Virus record (IMG/VR): IMGVR_UViG_3300045988_107797
Coordinates: 1 to 53,599 of that record
Source of the DNA: a virus
Length of the DNA: 53,599 nucleotides
Reading direction: 5' to 3' (one strand)
The notes under the pieces are model-generated. The model saw only the letters and a list, made by a program, of their open reading frames with translations. It was not told where the DNA came from and did not search any database. A program made the translations under genes and the position numbers. The number at the start of each line of letters is the position of its first letter. Positions within the stretch are counted from its first letter, which is position 1. Shown here in pieces: positions 786-26,666 of the stretch.

Positions 786-813
786 AACCATTCTCCTAAA
801 TATCTAAAAAATT

Positions 814-880
814 CACCCCCCGGAGAATTTTTTAGGAGTGCCGCGATAACGAGGGGGGTGTAGTTTTTGCGACCCCCCTC
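814..880. promoter_or_regulatory. Mutually exclusive G6/C6 hairpins (attenuator-like, ncRNA-like or packaging-site-like element)
   Basis: CACCCCCC (814-821) and ACCCCCCTC (872-880) can each pair with the single G tract GAGGGGGGTG (851-860). A/T runs flank both alternatives. These are the only such G/C tracts in the AT-rich part of the genome. Confidence 0.5.
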
Positions 881-918: not shown

Positions 919-1167
919 TTTCTTTGTTTGTTTAACTTTTTTGTAAATGTTCATGAAATCATATTTTATGATTTCGTCAATTGCTTTTTCAATTTCTTCG
1001 TTTATTTCTTGCTCTGAAAGTTCATCAGAAATTTTTGCAATTCGAGCCAAATAAGCACAAGAATTGTAACCTTTTTGAACATCGAAAAGAAACCAAGAAG
1101 TGAAGTCATCGAAAGGATCATAAGGGTTGTCAAAAGTTGTTAGTGCAACATTATTCATATGCTTCAC
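910..1167 (-). CDS. Hypothetical acidic protein (85 aa)
   Basis: ORF track. Its start overlaps the stop of 1164..3878 (translational coupling). No recognisable domain. Confidence 0.6.
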   Translation of the reverse strand: MKHMNNVALTTFDNPYDPFDDFTSWFLFDVQKGYNSCAYLARIAKISDELSEQEINEEIEKAIDEIIKYDFMNIYKKVKQTKKAG

Positions 1168-3878
1168 TCCTTTCCTTTAACATAGTTACCGACTATTGTT
1201 GCTGAAACACCTAAAGCTTCTGCAATTTCTGCATTATTGTACCCAGAAGCGAGCATAGCTTTAATCTTTGCGACCTGGTTAGGTGACAATCCTTTAGAAT
1301 TACGAGGTGTTGCACGTTGTCTTAATTGATCGATGTCGGTGTATTTAAGAATCTGGCTGAGGATGTTATCCGAAATAGCTCCGGCTTGTATGGCTTCCCA
1401 TTGTCTATCTGAAATAGTTATAGGAGTTCTCTGTGCACCGACTTTAATACGAGCTGATGTTAAAGCTTGCTGGCTTGCTTTTTTAATTTCTGCCTTAGTC
1501 ATATCGGGGTTCTGCCGTTTTTTTGCATTAACCGCTGTGTTGGCGATAATCTGAGCCTGACGTTCACGTGGGGCGTTCTTAAGGGCTATGTTGAGGGATG
1601 ATACCAGGGAGTCTACCTCCCCTTTATAGGTTTCCTTAGCCGAAGGAGATACTTTTATACGTCCAGTATTCATCATCTCTTTACGGGCCTCATTGGCTAG
1701 CATCTTCATGTTGTTTGCATAAGTAGCATATGCCTCTTCTTCCGGAGTGCCAGATGAAAGTTCTCTAGCATCCTTGGCTTCTGCCATTCTCGTACTAGTT
1801 TGGGTTCTAATTCGAGTCTTTCCTTTAGAATCAACATAAGTTTCATTTGCTTCCTTGTAATGTTGTTCGCCAGTTTCCTTATCGATTATCGGACTTCCTT
1901 TTCTTTTTGGCACCTGCACTTGAGATTTGGCTCGTGAAATTAATGTCGCGGCTCCCTCATGGTATCTACCAGTTTCGGGGTCAATAGTACCCTGATAATA
2001 TTTGTGTAAAGCTGCAATACCATTATCTTTTTCACTCTGTTTGTAATCCAGTTCATGCTTAGTGGCATCTATAATTACCATACTATGCCGAACAGCTCTT
2101 TCAATCTCATTTCGAGGAGCACCCATTAAAGTCATATCCGTAATTAGATTTGAAATGACTCCCATTTCAATCTGTTTCTGGTTTTCGCTAAGAACGCGCA
2201 TACCTTCACGTTTAGGGTATTCCATTTTTGGATCGAAATTTTTAAGTCCTTCCAAATATGGAGTGGATTTGATCTTAGTCTTACCTCCAGTTGGTATAAC
2301 CATTACGGTATCACCATCAAAGTCTGCGCCAGATAACCGCGCAGCAACATTACTATTAATACCAACGGCGTCTACTGCATTACCAAGAATACGTTTAGCT
2401 TCCGGTTGTTTATTGTTTACGGTTAGGATAGGTATCTCAAAAGTTCCACCATGAGGATAGCGAATTAATGCGATTGTCTCACCATTCTTATAATTCGGAG
2501 CATAAACCTCATCATCCTTCATTGAAGTAATCGGAAGAATGACTTGGTATTTTTGACGAGGCAAAGCGGCCGCTTTCAGATGTACAGCTGCAGCATCGCA
2601 ATCATCGGCGAAAGACTTCAAAAGAGCCCGCTTCACGGTAGGATTTGTAAGTTCTGAAATTTGTTCAAATTCAAGACGCTTGTCAGCGGTTGCCAAATTA
2701 AGCTGCTTATTAATCAAAGACAGATTTTGTTTCGATAAAAACTGAGACGATAGATGATCGCTCCATTCACCCCAGTCACCTTCTTCTGCACGTTTATTAA
2801 TTAGTGACAACGATTGTCTTTTTCCGCTTACCTCATCCACAAATTTACCATTAGGGTCATCATAAAAGCTTTGCCCTCCATGTTCTTTTATCAAAGATCC
2901 AAATGGATTTTCGGGATCATCCTTAATTTTCTTAAGGACTTCCATTTTAGGGGTGGTTTTGCTTTTATTAGTATTGAATAGAACATCTACTCCATCTGGT
3001 AAATCATCTGAATAGACGGCCATGCCCTTAAGATAACGATTATTATCTACTAATATTCGAACCTGAGCATAATGAGCCTCTCCTAATGATAAATCGTCAA
3101 CTCCACGACGAATTTCAATAACTCCATCTTTCTCTTTTCCTCCGTCTTCCGCATATCGAATAGCTAATCGACTCGAATCCATGCTTGCTGGATAGTAAAA
3201 AGACTTCTTAAAAGTTTCTCCGCCATCATAAGTCACATAATCTCTAAGAGAATGAATGTTCTCAAAATTATATATGTCGCTATATTTAGTCCCGGGAGGA
3301 CAGAGTACTTTAATATTAGTCTGTTTTCCTTTATTCGTTACTTGAGGAACACCGACACCGTATATCTCATAACCTTCACGCTCCAAAATATAGAGCGCCT
3401 CTTCAAACTTCTCGCGGGAAATATCTCCAAGCTCTTTCTCAACGCCGGCTCCAACATCGATCATACCTTTTTCATCTACTTTACTCTTAAGAAATTCCGC
3501 AGTTCTACGAGCAGCGTTCATTCTTGCTTCTGAGTGCTCATTGAGTAATGAACGAACGGATGAGTCATTGTTATAGCCCATGATCTCTGCAATTTCATTC
3601 AGACTCTTTCCATCTTCTCGTAAAGATTTGGCACGATCTACCTCCAAACGACGACGTTCTTCTTTAGCTAAAGACTTCTGAACGCGAAACTCAGTTGTTG
3701 TAAGGCCTATTGCTCTTGCAATTTCGGTATCGTTCATACCTTGACTCTTTAATTCATCGACACGACTAAGAAAATCACCGCTATGCTGATACGGGTTTTC
3801 TCCTGAACCCCAGGGATAGCGTCCAGAACGGCGCTTAATTCCATAATGCATCAAAATATCTTCTGTTACGCTGTTCAT
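1164..3878 (-). CDS. Single-polypeptide two-barrel (YonO-like) DNA-dependent RNA polymerase candidate with N- and C-terminal HTH modules
   Basis: 904 aa. A beta-prime-like barrel reads IALIRYPHGGTFEIPILTV...AVGINSNVAARLSGADFDGDTVMVIP (DFDGD = aa 519-523, nt 2310-2324). A beta-like barrel reads RYLKGMAVYSDDLPDGVDVLFNTN (about nt 2964-3035). HTH-like segments are MNDTEIARAIGLTTTEF, SLNEIAEIMGYNNDSSVRSLL and the C-terminal SGYNNAEIAEALGVSATIVGNYV. Confidence 0.7.
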   Translation of the reverse strand: MNSVTEDILMHYGIKRRSGRYPWGSGENPYQHSGDFLSRVDELKSQGMNDTEIARAIGLTTTEFRVQKSLAKEERRRLEVDRAKSLREDGKSLNEIAEIMGYNNDSSVRSLLNEHSEARMNAARRTAEFLKSKVDEKGMIDVGAGVEKELGDISREKFEEALYILEREGYEIYGVGVPQVTNKGKQTNIKVLCPPGTKYSDIYNFENIHSLRDYVTYDGGETFKKSFYYPASMDSSRLAIRYAEDGGKEKDGVIEIRRGVDDLSLGEAHYAQVRILVDNNRYLKGMAVYSDDLPDGVDVLFNTNKSKTTPKMEVLKKIKDDPENPFGSLIKEHGGQSFYDDPNGKFVDEVSGKRQSLSLINKRAEEGDWGEWSDHLSSQFLSKQNLSLINKQLNLATADKRLEFEQISELTNPTVKRALLKSFADDCDAAAVHLKAAALPRQKYQVILPITSMKDDEVYAPNYKNGETIALIRYPHGGTFEIPILTVNNKQPEAKRILGNAVDAVGINSNVAARLSGADFDGDTVMVIPTGGKTKIKSTPYLEGLKNFDPKMEYPKREGMRVLSENQKQIEMGVISNLITDMTLMGAPRNEIERAVRHSMVIIDATKHELDYKQSEKDNGIAALHKYYQGTIDPETGRYHEGAATLISRAKSQVQVPKRKGSPIIDKETGEQHYKEANETYVDSKGKTRIRTQTSTRMAEAKDARELSSGTPEEEAYATYANNMKMLANEARKEMMNTGRIKVSPSAKETYKGEVDSLVSSLNIALKNAPRERQAQIIANTAVNAKKRQNPDMTKAEIKKASQQALTSARIKVGAQRTPITISDRQWEAIQAGAISDNILSQILKYTDIDQLRQRATPRNSKGLSPNQVAKIKAMLASGYNNAEIAEALGVSATIVGNYVKGKE

Positions 3879-4709: not shown

Positions 4710-4777
4710 ATATTTACCTCCAAAAAAGACAAAAAATAAAGAGAGAAGTAAATGAATTTTACCCATTTTATTCTTCT

Positions 4778-4810
4778 CTCTCTATAAAAGAGCATGTTTT
4801 TTTCGCGAAG
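4778..4810 (-). promoter_or_regulatory. Copy of the conserved promoter-like block (TCGCG-N14-TTTTAT)
   Basis: Coding strand reads TCGCGAAAAAAACATGCTCTTTTATAGAGAG, with exactly 14 nt between CGCG and the hexamer. Upstream of the VRR-NUC gene. Confidence 0.5.
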
Positions 4811-5000
4811 CTAAAAATATATGTTGCAAGTCCTCGTAGTCAAATAGTTGTAAAAATGCTAAGATTACCATTTTCATAATTGAAGCGAAATCCACGTACA
4901 TAATCCTCGTCAAAGTGTTCTATTCATTAATACTCATTTCGTTCTGTTTATACGATCATATTGCATCTTCTTTCTTTAAAAAGCTTAATTTTTATGCTTC

Positions 5001-11011: not shown

Positions 11012-11050
11012 GAAAAAAGTAAAAGGCCACTTTTGTGACCTCTTACTTTA
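11012..11050 (-). terminator. Rho-independent terminator
   Basis: Coding strand reads AAAGTAAGAGGTCAC-AAAA-GTGGCCTTTTACTTTTTTC: a 12-bp stem, then a U-run. It lies directly after the stop of 11059..11379. Confidence 0.75.
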
Positions 11051-11058
11051 TTGTTTTA

Positions 11059-11379
11059 TTAAGCTTTGATTCCTCCATGCTTATTGATAAGCTCTTCGAC
11101 TATTTCGATAGGCACGTAACCATAAACGGTTTCAGTGTATGGTTCGTCTTCGGCATACTCGTTAATGAGTTCATCTTCTATACTCGGATAACCAAGCTCA
11201 ACGCTTTCATAATCTTGCATCCCATTGCATCTTGGTTCACAATAATGAAATTCGCTGGCTTGTACCGAAATAGAATATCCATCATTACAGTACAACCTCG
11301 GTCGTTTCTCTTGAATTTCTGTTCCATCAACATAATTACGTGTCGTAATCGTTTTCTTCAACCAATCTTTAATTGTCAT
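11059..11379 (-). CDS. Hypothetical protein (106 aa)
   Basis: ORF track. It has its own promoter-like block and terminator. Confidence 0.6.
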   Translation of the reverse strand: MTIKDWLKKTITTRNYVDGTEIQEKRPRLYCNDGYSISVQASEFHYCEPRCNGMQDYESVELGYPSIEDELINEYAEDEPYTETVYGYVPIEIVEELINKHGGIKA

Positions 11380-11391
11380 GTTAAATCAACT

Positions 11392-11424
11392 CCCTTCATT
11401 ATAGGGAATGTATTTTTCGCGTGA
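11392..11424 (-). promoter_or_regulatory. Copy of the conserved promoter-like block (ACGCG-N14-TATAAT)
   Basis: Coding strand reads ACGCGAAAAATACATTCCCTATAATGAAGGG. Confidence 0.55.
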
Positions 11425-12446: not shown

Positions 12447-13127
12447 TTAAGCCAAAATATCGACATTAGAATCATTCAGATCAGACGAATTTTCTCGAAG
12501 CTCGCAATAGGTTTCCCACGTAATCTCACGCCAATCTTTATTTTCCCTATCAGTAAAGAACCTATTGATATTGAATATTTCACCATCAGGCAACACGGCG
12601 TAGAATATCCCTTTAGTATCAAAATCACCATTTCCGTCCAAAGACAAGAAATCCTCAATATAAACTTTAATAGCATTCCCGGGACAGTACGGCATTTTAA
12701 CAGGGAAATATTCGTCCATGATTTTATCAATTAGACTGCTATGCCAAGAAGAACCGTTATGGATATCAACCCCAACGAAACGATTGACATCGGTATAATG
12801 TATCGATCCATCTGGCAATATTGTTTTAAATAGGCTGCTCATGCGTTTGTGTTGCCAGTGGTTCTCCCAAACAGGTTCTTCCCAGCTATCATCAGTATCG
12901 TAAATGGGGGTTAGAGGTCTTCCTTCAATAAGGCGGTTAAGAATGTTCTTTGTGATTTGAATACTCATCCCAGAATGCTGTACATTTGTAAGAACTTCGA
13001 AAGCTTTAAGTGCGTTTTCGTAGCATGCTACACCATACGCCCATTCGTTCCCAGATGCTGCGTCTTGCTCTCTACGGCAAGCCAATTCTACTTCGTTTTT
13101 CGCCCAATCCAGAACACTATTTTCCAT
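12447..13127 (-). CDS. Hypothetical protein (226 aa)
   Basis: ORF track. Confidence 0.6.
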   Translation of the reverse strand: MENSVLDWAKNEVELACRREQDAASGNEWAYGVACYENALKAFEVLTNVQHSGMSIQITKNILNRLIEGRPLTPIYDTDDSWEEPVWENHWQHKRMSSLFKTILPDGSIHYTDVNRFVGVDIHNGSSWHSSLIDKIMDEYFPVKMPYCPGNAIKVYIEDFLSLDGNGDFDTKGIFYAVLPDGEIFNINRFFTDRENKDWREITWETYCELRENSSDLNDSNVDILA

Positions 13128-14452: not shown

Positions 14453-14486
14453 TTCTCTCATAATACGAGTTGCAAATTTTGCGTAA
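14453..14486 (-). promoter_or_regulatory. Copy of the conserved promoter-like block directly upstream of the tRNA
   Basis: Coding strand reads ACGCAAAATTTGCAACTCGTATTATGAGAGAA, then the tRNA 5' end. The hexamer ends 7 nt before the mature tRNA 5' end. Confidence 0.6.
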
Positions 14487-20605: not shown

Positions 20606-21541
20606 TTAGTGTTTTGGATTGATTTTGTCCCACATTACTCCATCAACATTAAAGTCAAGAAGAATGGCGGGTTCGATACCATTTACAAAATCTCTAGATA
20701 CTGCCCTATAAAGATCGTAAATACCGAAAGAAACACGACAATCCGCGTTCTGGTCCTCTGGATCATAAATCCAACCAACTACTTGACCTATACTACATTT
20801 AGGAATTCCAAGGCTCTCGTAAACATCGTTCAAGAAAAGATAGCCATCTGCACGAAGCCTCTGATTAGCATAGTTTTCCTGAGCACGGAGGAACATCAAA
20901 TTATAATCCGGATTCTTCTCCCAATTCGGATTAGTTTCGTCAAAGAAGCGAGCGTATACACTGTTCTTTTCATTTTCTACGACCGGAACTACAGTCTTGG
21001 TTTTCTTAGTTTTTCCGTTTTCGTCTACAACGGTCTCTTCTATCTTCTGAGCCTTAATGCCATATTTCAATTCATGATCCACAGTTTCGCCATAACGTTC
21101 AGTAAGGCGTTCACGATAACCCTTAAAGCTCTTATCGAGAGCCGCATATGCAGTTGCAAGTGCAATATTCCGCTTACGAAGAATATTGTTCGACGTCAGA
21201 ATCCCAGTTATTGACAGACCGCCAAGAAGAACCGCCGGGCCATACAGCTTAGCAAATTTCAATGCTGTCTGAGCATAAACTATTGTAAGATCCTTTTTCA
21301 TATCGCTCTCGGTATACTCATCAGCGTACTTCTCATCTTTAGCTACCGTATGTATTTTTTCAACATCCTCTTTATGCTGCTCCAAAATATCATTCACCTT
21401 GGTGGTTGCCTTGCAGGCCATTACGGCGCTTACAACGGTGCCTATAACTCCAGCCACTACAAGAATCTCGGGGCTATACTGACGCAACTGAAAGCCGGTC
21501 TTCTTAACAAAACTAGCTGCTTTAGTACTAATGTTACTCAT
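20606..21541 (-). CDS. Two-TM membrane protein, paralog family member 1 (DUF6353-like, from memory)
   Basis: 311 aa. PEILVVAGVIGTVVSAVMACKATTKV...second TM...YGETVDHE...LGIPKCSIGQVVGWIYD. It aligns by eye with 22604..23371 and 24172..24951. Confidence 0.65.
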   Translation of the reverse strand: MSNISTKAASFVKKTGFQLRQYSPEILVVAGVIGTVVSAVMACKATTKVNDILEQHKEDVEKIHTVAKDEKYADEYTESDMKKDLTIVYAQTALKFAKLYGPAVLLGGLSITGILTSNNILRKRNIALATAYAALDKSFKGYRERLTERYGETVDHELKYGIKAQKIEETVVDENGKTKKTKTVVPVVENEKNSVYARFFDETNPNWEKNPDYNLMFLRAQENYANQRLRADGYLFLNDVYESLGIPKCSIGQVVGWIYDPEDQNADCRVSFGIYDLYRAVSRDFVNGIEPAILLDFNVDGVMWDKINPKH

Positions 21542-22204: not shown

Positions 22205-22247
22205 ATAAAAAAAGTAAAGGTGCCTTGTTACAGACACCTATACTTTT
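22205..22247 (-). terminator. Rho-independent terminator
   Basis: Coding strand reads AAAGTAT-AGGTGTC-TGTAACAA-GGCACCT-TTACTTTTTTTATT, after the stop of 22260..22535. Confidence 0.7.
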
Positions 22248-22259
22248 GGGTCACATCAA

Positions 22260-22535
22260 TTACTTGATCTTCTCTTCCCAATCATTGAACTCTTCGAATT
22301 CATCCTCCTTAGATTCTACATAAACGGCCTCTTTAGAAGCTTTCTTTGCTTCGTGCTTCGCCTTGAGTTTAGTCCAGAGCGGTTTGATGGCATACTTATA
22401 TGCTACTACGCCTATAAGTGCTGCCCCAGTAACCACCCCAGCTATCTTAAGGGTCTTACTTCCTCCACAAGTTGCAACCTCTTCAGTGACGTCCATGATG
22501 TCCTCTGCGTTAGTCATGATTTCGTTAGTTTCCAT
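22260..22535 (-). CDS. Small single-TM protein (91 aa)
   Basis: TM helix LKIAGVVTGAALIGVVAYKYAI. It has its own promoter-like block and terminator. Confidence 0.6.
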   Translation of the reverse strand: METNEIMTNAEDIMDVTEEVATCGGSKTLKIAGVVTGAALIGVVAYKYAIKPLWTKLKAKHEAKKASKEAVYVESKEDEFEEFNDWEEKIK

Positions 22536-22572: not shown

Positions 22573-22603
22573 CCTTCATAATAGAAAATGTAATTTTCGC
22601 GTA
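22573..22603 (-). promoter_or_regulatory. Copy of the conserved promoter-like block
   Basis: Coding strand reads ACGCGAAAATTACATTTTCTATTATGAAGG (hexamer 22578-22583, CGCG 22598-22601). Confidence 0.55.
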
Positions 22604-23371
22604 CTAACGGCAATATTTATACGTAGGAGATATGTTATAATCTACCGCTATGCACGGAGTTCCATCTTCGGACAGATGAGCGCTAAACCTAAAATTGATA
22701 AGGCCGTCCGCAATATTCCAACCCAAGTCATCTCCAATTTTTATTGGCGGCAGCCCTATTTCGTAGTAAAACTCATTAAGTGAGATGTACATTTCATTGA
22801 CGAGGCGCTTATTTACCTCGTTTTGCACATGCTTGAGTTTTTCGATATCTGATTTGAAATATCTTGATGAAATAGTATCAAAGCAAATCGTATCGCCCTT
22901 AGAGGTTATGATTACTTCGTTAGTTTTAATCGGGTTTTCTTTAATATGATCCTCCGCTATAGCGTCACGAATAATCTCATTCTTCTTTTCTCCGACGATT
23001 TCAACCACTTTTTTTTCATACTTGTTAAGAGCAGCCTCGGTTATGCTCCATGCTGCAGTCAATGCTGCTCTACGCTTAGCATTTTCCGAACTCGCTCCGA
23101 TTAGACAGGCAATAGACATCCCACTAGCTATTACAGATGGTAAATAAGAACGCCATGTGGCTTTGACTGTTTCGATCGGAGTCAATTTATCTTGATTAAG
23201 TTCCTGCTTAGATGCTTCAATCAAACGCAATGCCGTTGGCGTAGCTCTAACAGCCAATATCGTAGATGTAAGCATCCCAGTAATACCAATACCTGTTAAA
23301 ATTTCAGGATAATAGGTATTTAAAACAGTTTTGGCTTTATGCATAAATGCTGCCATTTTAGATGTGCTCAT
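22604..23371 (-). CDS. Two-TM membrane protein, paralog family member 2
   Basis: 255 aa. PEILTGIGITGMLTSTILAVRATPTA...IVGEKKNE...IGLPPIKIGDDLGWNIAD. Confidence 0.65.
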   Translation of the reverse strand: MSTSKMAAFMHKAKTVLNTYYPEILTGIGITGMLTSTILAVRATPTALRLIEASKQELNQDKLTPIETVKATWRSYLPSVIASGMSIACLIGASSENAKRRAALTAAWSITEAALNKYEKKVVEIVGEKKNEIIRDAIAEDHIKENPIKTNEVIITSKGDTICFDTISSRYFKSDIEKLKHVQNEVNKRLVNEMYISLNEFYYEIGLPPIKIGDDLGWNIADGLINFRFSAHLSEDGTPCIAVDYNISPTYKYCR

Positions 23372-23706
23372 TTCATACTCCTTTTTAATGATAACGCTTT
23401 TCTTGACAATAGAATATAAATCTCCTCTGCTGTTTCATAAGCATAAGAAAACACCACGCTTCTTGCTCCATCATTCATGCTATAAAATTCATACATCTCT
23501 TCCTTAAATTGTTTAACTGTTTGAATCGGATCGTCCGTACTACTTTCAAGTCTTTTAATTATCTCGCTTGCTGCACAAGATGAATAAGCTACTTCTTGCA
23601 GATAATAGTGGGGCCATCCGACTTTCGGTTTGGGAATAGTTTTCGAACAATAGCTACGAATGAAATTAATAGCCTGATCAGTTGTCATATTCGTCGTTTT
23701 TTGCAT
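23368..23706 (-). CDS. Hypothetical protein (112 aa)
   Basis: ORF track; ATGA-type coupling to 22604..23371. Confidence 0.55.
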   Translation of the reverse strand: MQKTTNMTTDQAINFIRSYCSKTIPKPKVGWPHYYLQEVAYSSCAASEIIKRLESSTDDPIQTVKQFKEEMYEFYSMNDGARSVVFSYAYETAEEIYILLSRKALSLKRSMK

Positions 23707-23890
23707 CTTCGAGAGCCTGACCGATTAAAGCATAAACTACAGTCTTCTGCTTTTCAGTCAATGTTTCAAAAACATCGCTTACAGTTTTTTCATTTTCTAG
23801 AACCTGACCGATTAAAGCGTAAACTACAGTCTTCTGCTTTTCATTCAATGTTTCAAAAACATCGCGTACAGTTTCTTCATTGCTCGCCAT
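23678..23890 (-). CDS. Small ORF built from two tandem copies of the capsid-gene linker segment
   Basis: 70 aa: MASNEETVRDVFETLNEKQKTVVYALIGQVLENEKTVSDVFETLTEKQKTVVYALIGQALEDAKNDEYDN. It has the same SD (GAGGAAGATAAA-ATG) and near-identical DNA to 38839..38952. Confidence 0.55.
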   Translation of the reverse strand: MASNEETVRDVFETLNEKQKTVVYALIGQVLENEKTVSDVFETLTEKQKTVVYALIGQALEDAKNDEYDN

Positions 23891-23905
23891 TTTATCTTCC
23901 TCTCA
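23702..23905. repeat. Two tandem copies of the ~105-nt segment also present at 38839..38952
   Basis: By-eye alignment: 23702-23790 and 23799-23905 each match 38839/38848-38952 with only a few mismatches. Confidence 0.85.
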
Positions 23906-23924
23906 ACGCCGCTATAAGTACTCC

Positions 23925-23953
23925 AAATAAATAAGAGTCCGTGTTCCGGACCC
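23925..23953 (-). terminator. Probable terminator
   Basis: Coding strand reads GGGTCCG-GAACA-CGGACTC, then TTATTTATTT. Confidence 0.45.
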
Positions 23954-24100
23954 TTACTGTTTGTTCGCGAGTGCTTTAGCAATCTTATCTTCGATTACTC
24001 CATCTAGCTTCTTGTCATTAATACGGTCGATGGCGAAAGTTACTGCCATTCCGATTATGCTAAGAGCTATATTCAAGATTTTAATCGTTTTAATGTTCAT
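23954..24100 (-). CDS. Small membrane protein (48 aa, below the ORF-track cutoff)
   Basis: My own translation is MNIKTIKILNIALSIIGMAVTFAIDRINDKKLDGVIEDKIAKALANKQ. GAAAGGAGG SD. It has its own promoter-like block. Confidence 0.55.
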   Translation of the reverse strand: MNIKTIKILNIALSIIGMAVTFAIDRINDKKLDGVIEDKIAKALANKQ

Positions 24101-24112
24101 AAGCTTTTAGCC

Positions 24113-24146
24113 TCCTTTCATAATATAAAATGTTTATTTCGCGTAA
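24113..24146 (-). promoter_or_regulatory. Copy of the conserved promoter-like block
   Basis: Coding strand reads ACGCGAAATAAACATTTTATATTATGAAAGGAGG (hexamer 24120-24125). Confidence 0.55.
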
Positions 24147-24171
24147 AAACAAAAAGATAATTGTGCGTAAA

Positions 24172-24951
24172 TTATTCCATATCGAGATAATCAGCTGTCG
24201 GAGGAAACGGAAAGTGAATATAAATACACTCTAACCCATCATCCAACGTCACCAATTCGTGATCGAAATCAATCCATGAATAACCATAATAACATTCGCC
24301 AGCTTCAATCGACCATCCGACAGTCTCGCCAAATAAAGTATTTGCGGGATGAAGATCCAAGAACGCATATAGTTCGTTCAGGTTTGCATAACCTCTAAGC
24401 TGGTAATTCCGATTGAAGTGATACTCGGCCAGTAATACCTCTTCTTTTGTACGAGTGAAGAATTCCCCATAATACTCTTCGAAAAACAGGAATTTTTCAT
24501 CGCTTAGCATTAAGCCAGTATTGTCATCGACTTTAGAGCGTATCATAGCACCCCTAACTTCTTTGTCGGCTTCATCGCCATAGAGCTCTCGCATCTTTGA
24601 CTTATACTCTTCATATGAATTACTCAAAATAGTATAAGCTCCGATCAATGCTTCCTTATTATTTCGGCTAATAGCGTCCGAACCTAATATACAGATTATA
24701 GTGCCCATGCATGAAATAGCGGTCGGAATATAACATTTCCAAGCTGATTGTATAGCCTCCAGCTTGGTGTAAGCATACGGGTCGCCATCATGATTAAAAC
24801 GACTATCTGCTTTTATAAGTTCATAGGCTTTTGGTGTAGCACGGATCGCAAGTATTGTCGTTACAATAACCCCTCCGGACCCTATGATCGATAGAATTGT
24901 CGAGTTGTTTCGTTTTACAAAACGTTTAATGTTCGCTATAAACCTTGTCAT
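24172..24951 (-). CDS. Two-TM membrane protein, paralog family member 3
   Basis: 259 aa. STILSIIGSGGVIVTTILAIRATPKA...LYGDEADKE...FGETVGWSIE. Confidence 0.65.
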   Translation of the reverse strand: MTRFIANIKRFVKRNNSTILSIIGSGGVIVTTILAIRATPKAYELIKADSRFNHDGDPYAYTKLEAIQSAWKCYIPTAISCMGTIICILGSDAISRNNKEALIGAYTILSNSYEEYKSKMRELYGDEADKEVRGAMIRSKVDDNTGLMLSDEKFLFFEEYYGEFFTRTKEEVLLAEYHFNRNYQLRGYANLNELYAFLDLHPANTLFGETVGWSIEAGECYYGYSWIDFDHELVTLDDGLECIYIHFPFPPTADYLDME

Positions 24952-24969
24952 CTCATGCTCCTTTCAGAG

Positions 24970-25005
24970 AATCAGAAATTAAGATGCCTTGTTAGACACC
25001 TTAAT
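24970..25005 (-). terminator. Probable terminator (same hairpin family as 22205..22247)
   Basis: Coding strand reads TTAAGGTGTC-TAACAA-GGCATCTTAA, then TTTCTG. Confidence 0.5.
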
Positions 25006-25015
25006 CCTTTCATAA

Positions 25016-25315
25016 TTACTTGGTGGGTTTAAATCTGTTAAACAGTCCTCTAAATGTCGTCGAGGTGTACGCTCCAGTTTCTTCGAACTTAAAGCCTCTG
25101 TTCATCCATATTCCGTAAAATACCAATGGTAAACCAATTCCTAGCAATCCAACTATCAGATCTGTCAAATTCTTGTCTTCCCTATTTTTCAAATCATACA
25201 GCTGACTTAGGTTTTCGGTCGTTTTCGCGTATTTTTCATCATACGGTTCCAACTCGGCTAAATGATCAAAGTCCTTTTCGATCTCACCTTTTAGCTTTTT
25301 TCTTTCTGTGAACAT
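25016..25315 (-). CDS. Small single-TM protein (99 aa)
   Basis: TM helix LIVGLLGIGLPLVFYGIWM. Confidence 0.6.
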   Translation of the reverse strand: MFTERKKLKGEIEKDFDHLAELEPYDEKYAKTTENLSQLYDLKNREDKNLTDLIVGLLGIGLPLVFYGIWMNRGFKFEETGAYTSTTFRGLFNRFKPTK

Positions 25316-25337
25316 TTTGTACCCCTTTCGTTATGGT

Positions 25338-25366
25338 TTCATAAAAGAAAATGTTAATTTCGCGGA
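25338..25366 (-). promoter_or_regulatory. Copy of the conserved promoter-like block
   Basis: Coding strand reads CCGCGAAATTAACATTTTCTTTTATGAAACC. It overlaps the last codons of 25354..25596. Confidence 0.5.
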
Positions 25367-25596
25367 AGAAAATCTTTCTGTTCAACAGCGAAAGTTACAA
25401 ACTTCTGTTTTGAAATATCGTCAACAGTATGCCCTTTAAGCTCCAAGAACAGATAAGGTGGTTCTTCAATATCCGAATGATCCATACGAAGAGTACCAAA
25501 AATCTCCTTGCCATCTTTTAAACCCCGCAGATAACCAGTAATCTGACCGACTATCAACAAGATAATACCCCCAATAAAGTACCAAGTGTAATTCAT
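25354..25596 (-). CDS. Small N-terminally anchored membrane protein (80 aa)
   Basis: TM helix WYFIGGIILLIVGQITGYL. Confidence 0.6.
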   Translation of the reverse strand: MNYTWYFIGGIILLIVGQITGYLRGLKDGKEIFGTLRMDHSDIEEPPYLFLELKGHTVDDISKQKFVTFAVEQKDFLPRN

Positions 25597-25654
25597 AATT
25601 CCATTCTCCTTTTCTATAAAATATCATTAATAATCGTTACCCGCATATGGTATT

Positions 25655-25693
25655 CGCGAAAAGAACAAGAGACCCAGTTTTCCAAGTCTCTTA
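25655..25693 (-). terminator. Rho-independent terminator
   Basis: Coding strand reads AAGAGAC-TTGGAAAACTGG-GTCTCTT, then GTTCTTTTCG. Confidence 0.65.
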
Positions 25694-25698
25694 AATCC

Positions 25699-25890
25699 TT
25701 AATGCAAGGCACGATAAATCTCATTCGCGATACAGATAATCAAGCAAATAGGAGCAACGAGTGTAGTGCACACGACATTAATAATCGTACGAAATAAAGA
25801 CCAGCCTTGTACTCTGCAAATCCAAATGTTAGCAGTAGCGACCATCACTAATACTCCAACTACTAGATACACTATAAATGCGATTAACAT
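25699..25890 (-). CDS. Small two-TM membrane protein (63 aa)
   Basis: ATG at 25890 follows a GAAAGGAAGG SD; the track ORF starts at an upstream GTG. Confidence 0.6.
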   Translation of the reverse strand: MLIAFIVYLVVGVLVMVATANIWICRVQGWSLFRTIINVVCTTLVAPICLIICIANEIYRALH

Positions 25891-25901
25891 AATTATCACC
25901 T

Positions 25902-25935
25902 TCCTTTCATAACAGAAAGTGCATATTTCGCGTAG
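25902..25935 (-). promoter_or_regulatory. Copy of the conserved promoter-like block
   Basis: Coding strand reads ACGCGAAATATGCACTTTCTGTTATGAAAGGAAGG. Confidence 0.55.
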
Positions 25936-25961
25936 AAAAAAGAAAGAGCCCTCGTGGGCTC
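25936..25961 (-). terminator. Rho-independent terminator
   Basis: Coding strand reads GAGCCC-ACGA-GGGCTC, then TTTCTTTTTT. It abuts the next promoter-like block. Confidence 0.7.
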
Positions 25962-26253
25962 AATCCGTGGTATAAACATAAATATCATTTTGTGGTATGT
26001 CTCTATTCGAGAAGACTCGTACAATCAATAATTCTTTGATCAAATTTCGCCATTCGGTATTGGAACAAGTTAAGTTAATGTACCACATCGTACTATTCTT
26101 CCAACCACAACTTCCAACTGCCATGTCAATTTGTATTTGAGTAAGCAGCCGGTCGCACGTCTTTTGTATAATACGCAGTGCCTCCATTACTTTGGTTTCG
26201 TCCATAATCAAATGATGTCTCTTGTAAATAATGTTGTCAAAAGTCCTCATCAT
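25960..26253 (-). CDS. Hypothetical protein (97 aa)
   Basis: Start placed at ATGATG 26253, after an AAAGGTAGGTG SD. The track start lies inside the promoter-like hexamer. Confidence 0.55.
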   Translation of the reverse strand: MMRTFDNIIYKRHHLIMDETKVMEALRIIQKTCDRLLTQIQIDMAVGSCGWKNSTMWYINLTCSNTEWRNLIKELLIVRVFSNRDIPQNDIYVYTTD

Positions 26254-26262
26254 AATACACCT

Positions 26263-26296
26263 ACCTTTCATAATAGAAAATGTAGGTTTCGCGTAT
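26263..26296 (-). promoter_or_regulatory. Copy of the conserved promoter-like block
   Basis: Coding strand reads ACGCGAAACCTACATTTTCTATTATGAAAGGTAGG. Confidence 0.55.
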
Positions 26297-26379
26297 TTAC
26301 TGCCTTTCGCGATCTAATATTCAGAAGAACCGTCTGTACAATTCGTAGTAAACGTCTTTACAGCTAATCCTTAAAAATG

Positions 26380-26407
26380 CAAAAAGAAAGAGTCCATGTA
26401 GGACTCG
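26380..26407 (-). terminator. Rho-independent terminator
   Basis: Coding strand reads GAGTCC-TACAT-GGACTC, then TTTCTTTTTG. Confidence 0.7.
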
Positions 26408-26416
26408 TTCCGTTAA

Positions 26417-26614
26417 TCAGTTTTCTTTAATTGGTCCATTAAATATCACCTTACTAGATGGGAGTAAGTTAGATTCCTTCTTAAACTGGTAACCTAGATT
26501 AGAACGAGCTTTCGCAAGCGTTGGTGCCATTGTCGCTCCTTCCCATTTATCGGTTAGTAATTTTCCGAATGAATTCGTAACCGGACCCTTATAGCTAAAG
26601 TGTTTGTATTCCAT
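26417..26614 (-). CDS. Hypothetical protein (65 aa)
   Basis: Start moved to the ATG at 26614, after a GGAGG SD. Sequence begins MEYKHFSYKGPVTNSFGKLLTDKWEGATMAPTLAKARSNLGYQFKK... Confidence 0.55.
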   Translation of the reverse strand: MEYKHFSYKGPVTNSFGKLLTDKWEGATMAPTLAKARSNLGYQFKKESNLLPSSKVIFNGPIKEN

Positions 26615-26632
26615 ATAAACCTCCATAAATAT

Positions 26633-26666
26633 AATTCTCATAAAAGAGGCTGTAAAAACCGCGTAT
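26633..26666 (-). promoter_or_regulatory. Copy of the conserved promoter-like block
   Basis: Coding strand reads ACGCGGTTTTTACAGCCTCTTTTATGAGAAT. Confidence 0.5.

Follow-up and report, generated by a model that had tools for sequence, protein, structure and literature searches.

Introduction

The phage sequence IMGVR_UViG_3300045988_107797, analyzed here over its full length of 53,599 nucleotides (nt) and called the window below, carries nine copies of a 30-nt block on its minus strand, the strand on which all of its genes lie. Each copy contains a hexamer resembling the -10 box of sigma-A promoters, and one copy stands just before a transfer RNA (tRNA) gene. The question raised by this locus is what reads these blocks. 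We consider it likely, with a probability of roughly 65%, that they are promoters for the phage's own single-chain RNA polymerase, a candidate protein of 904 amino acids (aa), and not for the host sigma-A holoenzyme; this assessment draws on comparative sequence analysis. We infer from several lines of support that the 904-aa protein is the probable reader of the motif.

The two ends of the window share a 44-nt repeat, giving a unit of ~53,555 bp, and because this terminal repeat closes the sequence, the window is a complete genome, of the cohesive-end (cos) type. The phage falls into a group with Lactococcus phage 1706, Faecalibacterium phage FP_oengus, and an actinophage supercluster, whose signature gene encodes a ~900-aa RNA polymerase that resembles RNA-dependent RNA polymerases (RdRPs). 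A megablast search with 8 kb of the window matched no close sequenced relative among GenBank phages. Koert et al. reported that the phages of this group share ancestry across Actinobacteria and Firmicutes, and their text nowhere mentions promoters or transcription (10.1101/842583).

Results

Nine intergenic blocks share one fixed geometry

The blocks follow a single consensus, CGCR-N6-RCA-N5-TWTTAT-G, in which all distances are fixed. A first-pass annotation made from the letters of the window had described nine copies of ACGCG-N14-TATTAT on the coding (minus) strand, and all nine were found where it had placed them (Table 1). The spacer between CGCR and the hexamer is 14 nt long at 9/9 sites, and its positions 7-9 read ACA in seven copies and GCA in two, the RCA of the earlier description; the single CGCA variant is the copy next to the tRNA. 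Other details of that description hold for part of the set. The hexamer is TATTAT at four sites, the others having TTTTAT (three), TGTTAT (one), and TATAAT (one), and the leading A of ACGCG is present in seven of the nine. All copies are intergenic, lying in gaps of 38-356 nt between minus-strand open reading frames (ORFs). Together they span the whole non-structural half of the genome, and the 27-kb structural and lysis half is without any copy.

Such a set far exceeds what would be expected by chance. The strict pattern ACGCR-N14-TATTAT matched the window four times against 0.05 expected matches, and the consensus with up to three mismatches matched six times against 0.00 expected. A weight matrix built from the nine sites scored them at 32-48 bits, or 15-43 bits in a leave-one-out analysis, and the runner-up site on either strand of the window reached 11.4 bits.

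The geometry is conserved and strand-specific in relatives

We examined relatives in a set of 80 loci (1.13 Mb in total) that were fetched via a DUF6353 protein (47-97% identity) and were therefore not selected for the motif. At a threshold of at least 14 bits, the window-derived matrix gave 484 matches on the coding strand and 2 on the opposite strand. With the upstream half alone as an anchor, 281 coding-strand sites were found as opposed to 33 on the opposite strand, and the downstream half followed at the exact spacing in 260/281 of the former and 1/33 of the latter. The same fixed-geometry motif was present in every relative examined. Pattern scans extended its range to at least 120 viral contigs and to at least 120 stretches of bacterial genomes, mostly from Oscillospiraceae, Lachnospiraceae, Ruminococcus, and Clostridium leptum. 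A loosened scoring function tried for per-genome consensus tables gave too many false positives and was discarded.

Five named phages have identical motif geometry (a slash marks the end of the hexamer). FP_oengus has 15 coding-strand sites of the form CTTTAT/GGA, one of which abuts a tRNA; its hexamer is CTTTAT in 12/15 sites, and position 2 is T in 14/15. Arthrobacter phage Circum has 9-10 coding-strand sites (CGCGTAAATTACAnGGGCTATAAT/GA), Gordonia phage Schwartz33 has eight (...ACACGTCCTATAAT/GAGACCCC), Streptomyces phage HotFries has at least seven (TATAGT/GAGACCCCTAC), and Lactococcus phage 1706 has 12 (TTTTACAnnnnCTATAGT/AGAAAG). The exact hexamer TATAAT occurs in Circum and Schwartz33. 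Variants are uniform within a genome and differ between genomes, the pattern expected of co-evolution with a phage-specific enzyme. Motif and polymerase were found together in phages of Clostridia, Lactococcus, Arthrobacter, Gordonia, and Streptomyces, and the 30-nt geometry is constant over hosts whose guanine-plus-cytosine (GC) content ranges from 36 to 72%.

Initiation is predicted at the base that abuts the hexamer

Sites anchored by the upstream half allowed the hexamer to be described independently of its own sequence. Its composition is T (87%), A or T (46% and 45%), T (95%), T (81%), A (95%), and T (94%); it is followed by G in 95% of sites and then by purines. Numbered from this G as the inferred +1, conservation runs from -26 to +4. 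The near-invariant A at position 2 that characterizes sigma-70 promoters is lacking here, and position 6 is T as stated. No -35 element resembling TTGACA was found 16-18 bp upstream of the hexamer, where the sequence reads nnTACG or other mismatching bases. Scans of the whole window with sigma-70 patterns gave matches at chance level (72, 43, and 27 matches as compared to 62.5, 55.5, and 29 expected).

The positions of tRNAs and Shine-Dalgarno (SD) sequences bear on where transcription starts. In the window, the distance from the hexamer to the tRNA, first given as 7 nt, is 6 nt (hexamer end 14460, tRNA 5' end 14453 as predicted by ARAGORN). Among relatives, the tRNA 5' end lies 1-6 nt past the hexamer in 22/33 distinct tRNA contexts, most commonly at 3 nt. 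An SD-like tetramer starts 2-3 nt past the hexamer at 87/273 sites, with the start codon 17-20 nt past the hexamer, and four window copies (C of CGCG at 26293, 25932, 24143, and 11421) have an SD straight after the hexamer, in agreement with the earlier description. A start ~7 nt downstream would therefore truncate the tRNAs and remove the SDs. The 5-9 nt between -10 box and start that sigma-70 promoters have is accordingly not found, as judged indirectly from these tRNA and SD positions. The most economical interpretation puts initiation at the conserved G abutting the hexamer or next to it. A conserved block that abuts +1 is typical of polymerases that find their promoters unaided, such as those of the T7 type, which favors a phage polymerase over a sigma-directed enzyme. 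The remaining hallmarks of T7-type architecture are also seen: the block is continuous up to the inferred +1, the predicted start is a purine, each genome holds 9-15 co-oriented copies, and the variants are genome-specific.

These results uphold two statements of the first-pass annotation. It had called the block a transcription signal and not a translation signal, which agrees with the tRNA contexts, with the strand bias of 484 to 2, and with RNAalifold, which returned 0 consensus pairs for the nine window sites. It had also argued that the block is not a standard sigma-A promoter, and the missing -35 element, the 46% A at hexamer position 2, the 95% G that follows, and the closeness of tRNAs and SDs all speak for this.

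The 904-aa protein is a candidate two-barrel RNA polymerase

The only polymerase-like or sigma-like protein encoded in the window is the 904-aa ORF product. It matched PHROG 4291, annotated 'RNA-dependent RNA polymerase', with an expectation value (E) of 0. GADFDGD lies at residues 517-523 and RYPHGG at residues 473-478, so that a DxDGD motif is preceded by an RxPxxH-type motif ~40 residues upstream, the arrangement that two-barrel polymerases have within one barrel. Both LSGADFDGD and RYPHGG are invariant in an alignment of six clades whose members are 41-52% identical to the window protein. The GADFDGD pattern is presumably the counterpart of the NADFDGD signature of beta-prime. The Pfam RdRP family PF05183 was the top match over the catalytic region, at a sub-threshold level (E = 0.01; 15 bits, with the cut-off at 23.8).

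The chain also carries helix-turn-helix (HTH) modules, namely two HTH-like repeats close to the N-terminus and, at residues 862-896, a module resembling HTH_38 or sigma region 4 (E = 3.7e-8 to HTH_38). Precomputed Pfam listings for relatives of the protein include the sigma-70 region-4 families PF04545 and PF08281. In an HHpred analysis, Koert et al. obtained PF05183 RdRP at 95.7% probability, noted the DxDGD motif and HTH domains at both ends, and counted the polymerase-like protein among the very few that are conserved in all of these phages (10.1101/842583).

In tblastn comparisons, proteins of FP_oengus and of phages infecting Arthrobacter, Gordonia, and Streptomyces share ~51% identity with it. 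Lactococcus phages also gave matches, and the 1706 protein is 41% identical in the six-way alignment. The family comprises more than 8000 protein clusters at 90% identity among the matches listed. A search of PDB sequences with the 904-aa protein gave nothing relevant, and no T7-like (Pol A family) single-subunit RNA polymerase was found in the window. The first-pass annotation had named the 904-aa protein as a candidate reader of the blocks; the GADFDGD motif, the HTH domains, the PHROG 4291 match, and the co-occurrence with the motif across host groups all point the same way. In HotFries, the homologue (gene 56) seems to have been annotated with a start that lies too far into the gene: the stretch treated as intergenic in front of it (L202 40514-40664) encodes the conserved N-terminal segment HYG-x-RRSGRYPWGSG.

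The blocks head putative short transcription units and the polymerase operon

Five of the nine blocks are followed by a single small ORF and a terminator-like hairpin (Table 1), and the motif often has a terminator-like hairpin upstream of it as well. An earlier assignment of the copies to membrane-protein cassettes, one nuclease gene, one orphan gene, and the tRNA was only approximately right. In relatives, the 10 kb that come after the polymerase gene contain no copy.

The copy that heads the polymerase operon (C of CGCG at 4807) belongs to a distinct and unusually conserved subclass, CGCGAAAAAAACATGCCCTTTTAT/GAAGAG, with an A7 tract, CATGCCC, and the hexamer TTTTAT. Relatives were examined here in 75 loci (L207-L281) that were anchored on polymerases 52-76% identical to that of the window and that cover the DNA in front of the polymerase gene; nearly all of them have a site of this subclass, at a distance of ~920-970 nt from the gene. 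This promoter is nearly invariant across orthologues, leaving no basis for an analysis of residue-base covariation.

The leader of this operon contains a hairpin whose 5' arm begins at the predicted +1 (AGAGAGAGAAG ... CTTCTCTCT) and which is followed by TTTATTTTTT; it looks like an intrinsic terminator or attenuator. A hairpin from the inferred +1 followed by a T run was found in 36/56 distinct leaders of relatives and in 8/1120 shuffled controls, and the stem sequences differ from clade to clade. The helix begins at the first base past the hexamer in 38/56 leaders. When 12 upstream bases were added, the predicted pairing often reached upstream, so that the support for the +1 is suggestive only.

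Just upstream of this copy lies a sigma-70-like pair, TTGACT-N16-TATATT (10/12 matches; 4816-4843, minus strand). It could provide host-driven priming of polymerase expression, and such matches occur at chance frequency window-wide.

At the tRNA, the six leader bases GAGAGA can pair with the trailer TCTCT on the 3' side, and ARAGORN predicts an acceptor stem of 8 bp. Phages whose neighboring DUF6353 protein is 95-96% identical to that of the window carry the same tRNA scaffold with other anticodons (TGA, GAA, and TAG as compared to TAA in the window; L001 ~15259, L004 ~15250, L005 ~13595), and more distant relatives have a TTA ('stop') anticodon or irregular anticodon loops. This variation suggests that the anticodon is under diversifying selection. 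A second tRNA, tRNA-Leu (CAG), occurs in seven loci (L219, L221, L223, L224, L226, L233, and L242), where AAAGTGCAGCACAAGTAT abuts the tRNA 5' end with zero gap and may be a divergent promoter variant.

Discussion

A working model and its competitors

In the model that we favor, positions are counted from the conserved G as +1. The upstream part of the block would consist of CGCR (-24 to -21), an A-rich tract (-20 to -18), and (T)T-R-C-A (about -16 to -12, with RCA at ~-14 to -12). Next would come five variable nt, the last of them C, and an AT-rich segment for melting, T-W-T-T-A-T (-6 to -1); transcription would initiate at G(+1), and purines would occupy +2 to +4. At least one of the fused HTH modules would dock on CGCR, the A-tract, and RCA, and docking would set the two-barrel active site over the AT-rich block, by analogy with T7-type promoters, in which a continuous block abuts +1. 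The promoters would drive short cassettes (often promoter, small gene, and hairpin terminator), the unit of tRNA and helicase, and the operon of endonuclease, exonuclease, and polymerase. The first polymerase molecules could come from virion delivery, weak host transcription, or read-through. Read-through across joined cos ends, which is known from lambda, is one possibility both for the first polymerase and for transcription of the late genes. A bolder proposal, to which we give slightly less than even odds, is that the ~900-aa protein is a self-sufficient, promoter-specific two-barrel RNA polymerase with fused sigma-region-4-like HTHs, for which one 30-nt promoter grammar has been kept across Firmicutes and Actinobacteria.

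Several observations weigh against assigning the blocks to the phage polymerase. The polymerase gene is itself behind a motif copy, so a separate source of the first polymerase molecules is needed. About ten other proteins are also family-wide, and co-occurrence cannot single out the polymerase among them. The tRNAs and SDs could in principle be supplied by read-through transcripts, which weakens the argument for the start position. The hexamer is near TATAAT, and two genome announcements call the motif a sigma-70 -10 box. An AlphaFold2 model, built from 32 sequences of 71-76% identity, was poor (mean predicted local distance difference test score 62, predicted template modeling score 0.40, catalytic residues 434-542 below 50), and a Foldseek search of the PDB with this model returned no match with E <= 0.001, the one weak similarity being to a LuxR/DosR-type HTH over 39 residues. 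Comparison of the six-clade alignment with YonO of SPbeta by hhalign found no similarity (0.4% probability). Finally, our literature search turned up neither mapped transcript 5' ends nor rifampicin or in vitro transcription data for this family. YonO serves late genes from one promoter (PMC5467207), and by analogy the 904-aa protein might act on the motif-free late region instead.

The most serious competitor, which we judge unlikely, is that the blocks are host promoters. The hexamer would then be a sigma-A -10 box, and CGCR, the A-tract, and RCA would form a nonstandard upstream element or a phage-activator box replacing the -35 element, with an activator acting as at T4 MotA-type middle promoters; the phage polymerase would be left with the motif-free late genes only, in the manner of YonO. 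The likeness of the hexamer to TATAAT, exact in Circum and Schwartz33, and the sigma-70 view taken by the authors of the Vardy and Conley announcements favor this explanation, yet A at position 2 is found in only 46% of sites and is replaced by T in 14/15 FP_oengus sites and in the polymerase-operon subclass. Gene order can also be read in this sense, since the polymerase gene, behind its motif, stands immediately upstream, across cos, of the 27-kb motif-free late region, and YonO transcribes its late genes from a single start site; no conserved activator or sigma candidate was seen, however, besides the polymerase. The window tRNA, at 6 nt past the hexamer, is by itself compatible with a start 7 nt downstream, but a sigma-type start would truncate the tRNA in most relatives, where it begins 1-4 nt past the hexamer, and would likewise cut into SDs at 2-3 nt. 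The absence of a -35 element at 16-18 bp, the conservation of the G after the hexamer and of the purines at +2 to +4 to the same degree as the hexamer, and the retention of one 30-nt geometry in hosts of 36-72% GC with different sigma-A preferences further argue against host promoters.

We regard as improbable, and less likely than host promoters, a scheme in which the host core polymerase is directed by a phage sigma-like or specificity factor, the 904-aa protein in one version being a DNA-binding adaptor that acts via its HTHs. Phage-encoded sigma factors that direct transcription from unusual promoters are familiar (SPO1 gp28 and T4 gp55 are examples), and the three HTH modules of the 904-aa protein, together with the sigma-70 region-4 families listed for its relatives, would suit such a role. 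Sigma-directed initiation, by contrast, always requires a gap of several bases from the -10-like element to +1, and here 1-3 nt at most are available. No sigma factor was found among 40 small ORFs of the window, and no window ORF has a sigma region-2 domain. The invariant GADFDGD argues for an active polymerase over a mere adaptor. Lastly, it is very improbable that the blocks are not promoters at all and act either at the RNA level, as a processing site or translational operator, or as DNA sites used in replication, packaging, or recombination: one third of the copies run into the SD and a related half-site occurs in the cos loop, but no RNA structure is conserved, tRNAs, which need no translation, are also preceded by the motif, the upstream hairpins, single small gene, and terminator give the layout of an independent transcription unit, and the motif is restricted to the coding strand and to intergenic gaps.

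Genome layout and the cos element

Read in coding orientation, the late part of the genome carries a tail-fibre-like gene, endolysins, terminase, portal, and capsid genes, and then tail genes and the holin (to ~26971). The motif-bearing half follows, with small ORFs and three DUF6353 paralogues, a 1370-aa primase-polymerase, a single-stranded-DNA-binding protein, the tRNA and helicase, homologues of the anti-Thoeris proteins Tad3 and Tad8 together with a MazG-like protein, the exonuclease, and the 904-aa protein. Anti-defence genes thus lie within the putatively motif-driven half: the homologue of the Thoeris inhibitor Tad3 (E = 2.5e-28) and that of Tad8 (E = 4.9e-23), located at 12447-13127 and in one further small ORF within 910-27489.

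Table 1. Features of the window discussed in the text, with coordinates on its 53,599 nt.
Feature	Coordinates	Strand	C of CGCG or CGCA	Hexamer	Predicted +1	Context
Promoter-like block 1	26636-26665	-	26663 (CGCG 26660-26663)	TTTTAT 26640-26645	G 26639	First copy past the holin and late genes; then 65-aa ORF 26417-26614 and terminator-like hairpin 26390-26406
Promoter-like block 2	26266-26295	-	26293	TATTAT 26270-26275	G 26269	SD 2 nt past the hexamer; upstream of 97-aa ORF 25960-26253; terminator-like hairpin 25946-25961
Promoter-like block 3	25905-25934	-	25932	TGTTAT 25909-25914	G 25908	Upstream of small ORF ending at 25699; terminator-like hairpin 25666-25693
Promoter-like block 4	25337-25366	-	25364	TTTTAT 25341-25346	G 25340	Upstream of 99-aa ORF 25016-25315, then DUF6353 gene 24172-24951
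Promoter-like block 5	24116-24145	-	24143	TATTAT 24120-24125	G 24119, then directly GAAAGGAGG	Upstream of small ORFs and DUF6353 gene 22604-23371
Promoter-like block 6	22574-22603	-	22601	TATTAT 22578-22583	G 22577	Begins 1 nt past the stop of DUF6353 gene 22604-23371; then 91-aa ORF 22260-22535 and terminator-like hairpin 22218-22239
Promoter-like block 7	14456-14485	-	14483 (CGCA)	TATTAT 14460-14465	G 14459	Adjoins the tRNA
tRNA gene, anticodon TAA	14379-14453	-				5' end predicted by ARAGORN, 6 nt past the hexamer of block 7
Promoter-like block 8	11394-11423	-	11421	TATAAT 11398-11403	G 11397	Upstream of 106-aa ORF 11059-11379; terminator-like hairpin 11016-11049
Promoter-like block 9	4780-4809	-	4807	4784-4789	A 4783	Sequence CGCGAAAAAAACATGCTCTTTTAT; at the head of the endonuclease, exonuclease, and polymerase operon
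Leader of the polymerase operon	4731-4783	-				Hairpin and T-run-like tail
904-aa candidate polymerase	1164-3878	-				RdRP-like (two-barrel class); GADFDGD, RYPHGG, HTHs
cos-like genome end	807-878	-				31 nt downstream of the stop of 82-aa ORF 910-1158, which follows the polymerase gene
DUF6353 paralogues (three)	20606-21541, 22604-23371, 24172-24951

The motif-bearing half and the ~27-kb motif-free late region are divided by the cos element. In the window it reads G6-TCGCAAAAACTACA-C6-TCGTTAT/CGCGGCACT/CC...G6 followed by a T run. Its family-wide form consists of G5-10, the loop T-CGCAAAAA-nn-RCA, C5-6, TCnnnCAT, a 9-nt CGCGGCACT-like segment, and ...CCGGGGG with a T run. The element also occurs at L203 49952-50000, at L202 43651-43699, and in many of the loci L207-L281. 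It coincides with the physical right ends of Circum, which has a 9-base 3' overhang, and of HotFries, and many IMG/VR contigs end exactly at its ...CAT. The cos loop CGCAAAAACTACA (846-872, minus strand) is similar to the promoter upstream half CGCR-AAA-N3-RCA, and the putative cos nick (...TAT/CG) falls at the +1 position if the spacer is taken to be 2 nt longer. This likeness could be due to chance or to a shared binding site for an HTH domain. In the bolder proposal above, the enzyme might be delivered together with the right genome end, where cos carries the promoter-like half-site and the putative nick falls at the would-be +1.

Significance and comparison with known systems

What is best supported as new here is a promoter for an uncharacterized class of two-barrel polymerases with fused HTHs, apparently conserved over two bacterial phyla. 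The polymerase family is common in prophages of human-gut Clostridia and in hundreds of classroom-isolated actinophages, for which the promoter was hitherto unassigned. If the assignment is true, the non-structural half of these genomes is transcribed independently of the host sigma factor, and a host-sigma-independent polymerase with its own promoter set would help explain how the lineage crossed phyla. A defined promoter makes the activity and promoter specificity of the enzyme testable in culturable phages (1706, Circum, the cluster DJ phages, and FP_oengus). A minimal two-barrel polymerase with built-in promoter recognition would also bear on the evolution of sigma-dependent multisubunit polymerases. 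The promoter is further a candidate for orthogonal expression in Gram-positive and high-GC hosts, and with it transcription units, anti-defence cassettes among them, could be annotated better in thousands of phage genomes from metagenomes.

The closest earlier report concerns the Gordonia cluster DJ phages Vardy and Conley, in which five intergenic copies of a 50-bp or 43-bp motif were described as 'containing a -10 sigma-70 promoter' (PMC9671010, PMC10868162). This is probably the same element, since the sites of Schwartz33, also of cluster DJ, fit the published description: five intergenic copies amid central small membrane-protein genes, TATAAT inside the motif, and terminators between the genes. 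The earlier report differs in covering a single cluster and in reading the motif as a sigma-70 -10 box, with no link to a polymerase, to Firmicutes phages, or to a start position. Among open-access papers we found none that connects motif and polymerase, describes the motif in phages beyond cluster DJ, or locates its start sites, and none on the promoters of 1706, cluster AM, or ReqiPepy6.

Sigma-70 or sigma-A promoters and T4 MotA middle promoters share with the block a TATAAT-like hexamer and a conserved element ~14 nt upstream, in the place of the MotA box. They differ from it in that here the A at position 2 is unconserved, there is no -35 element, no room is left for a discriminator, and G follows the hexamer in 95% of sites. 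SPbeta, whose YonO transcribes late genes from one mapped start (PMC5467207), resembles the phage studied here in having the polymerase gene just upstream of the late gene block. The enzymes show no hhalign similarity, however, and here 9-15 motif copies lie in the early and middle half with none in the late half; a regex scan of the P(yonO) region (yonN-yonK intergenic) found no motif-like site.

Promoters of the T7, T3, and SP6 type are alike in having a continuous block of ~25-30 bp that abuts +1, a TATA-like AT-rich segment before a purine start, conserved initial purines, many gene-co-oriented copies, and genome-specific variants that travel with the polymerase. The block described here is longer and bipartite-looking, with a conserved CGCR 21-24 nt upstream, and its candidate enzyme is an RdRP-like two-barrel protein with fused HTHs and not a member of the Pol A family. 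The polymerase gene lies behind a promoter of its own type, whereas in T7 it lies behind host promoters, and the T7-like reading of the present system is drawn from sequence comparisons.

Among two-barrel enzymes, the non-virion polymerases of AR9 and phiKZ have their own non-sigma promoter motif. Thermus phage P23-45 encodes two such polymerases (gp96 and gp64), each with its own promoter motif that co-occurs with the enzyme across relatives. The system described here would share with P23-45 a phage polymerase of the two-barrel class, a non-sigma motif, and the co-occurrence of motif and enzyme, and it differs from the other phage two-barrel polymerases in that HTH modules are fused to the catalytic chain.

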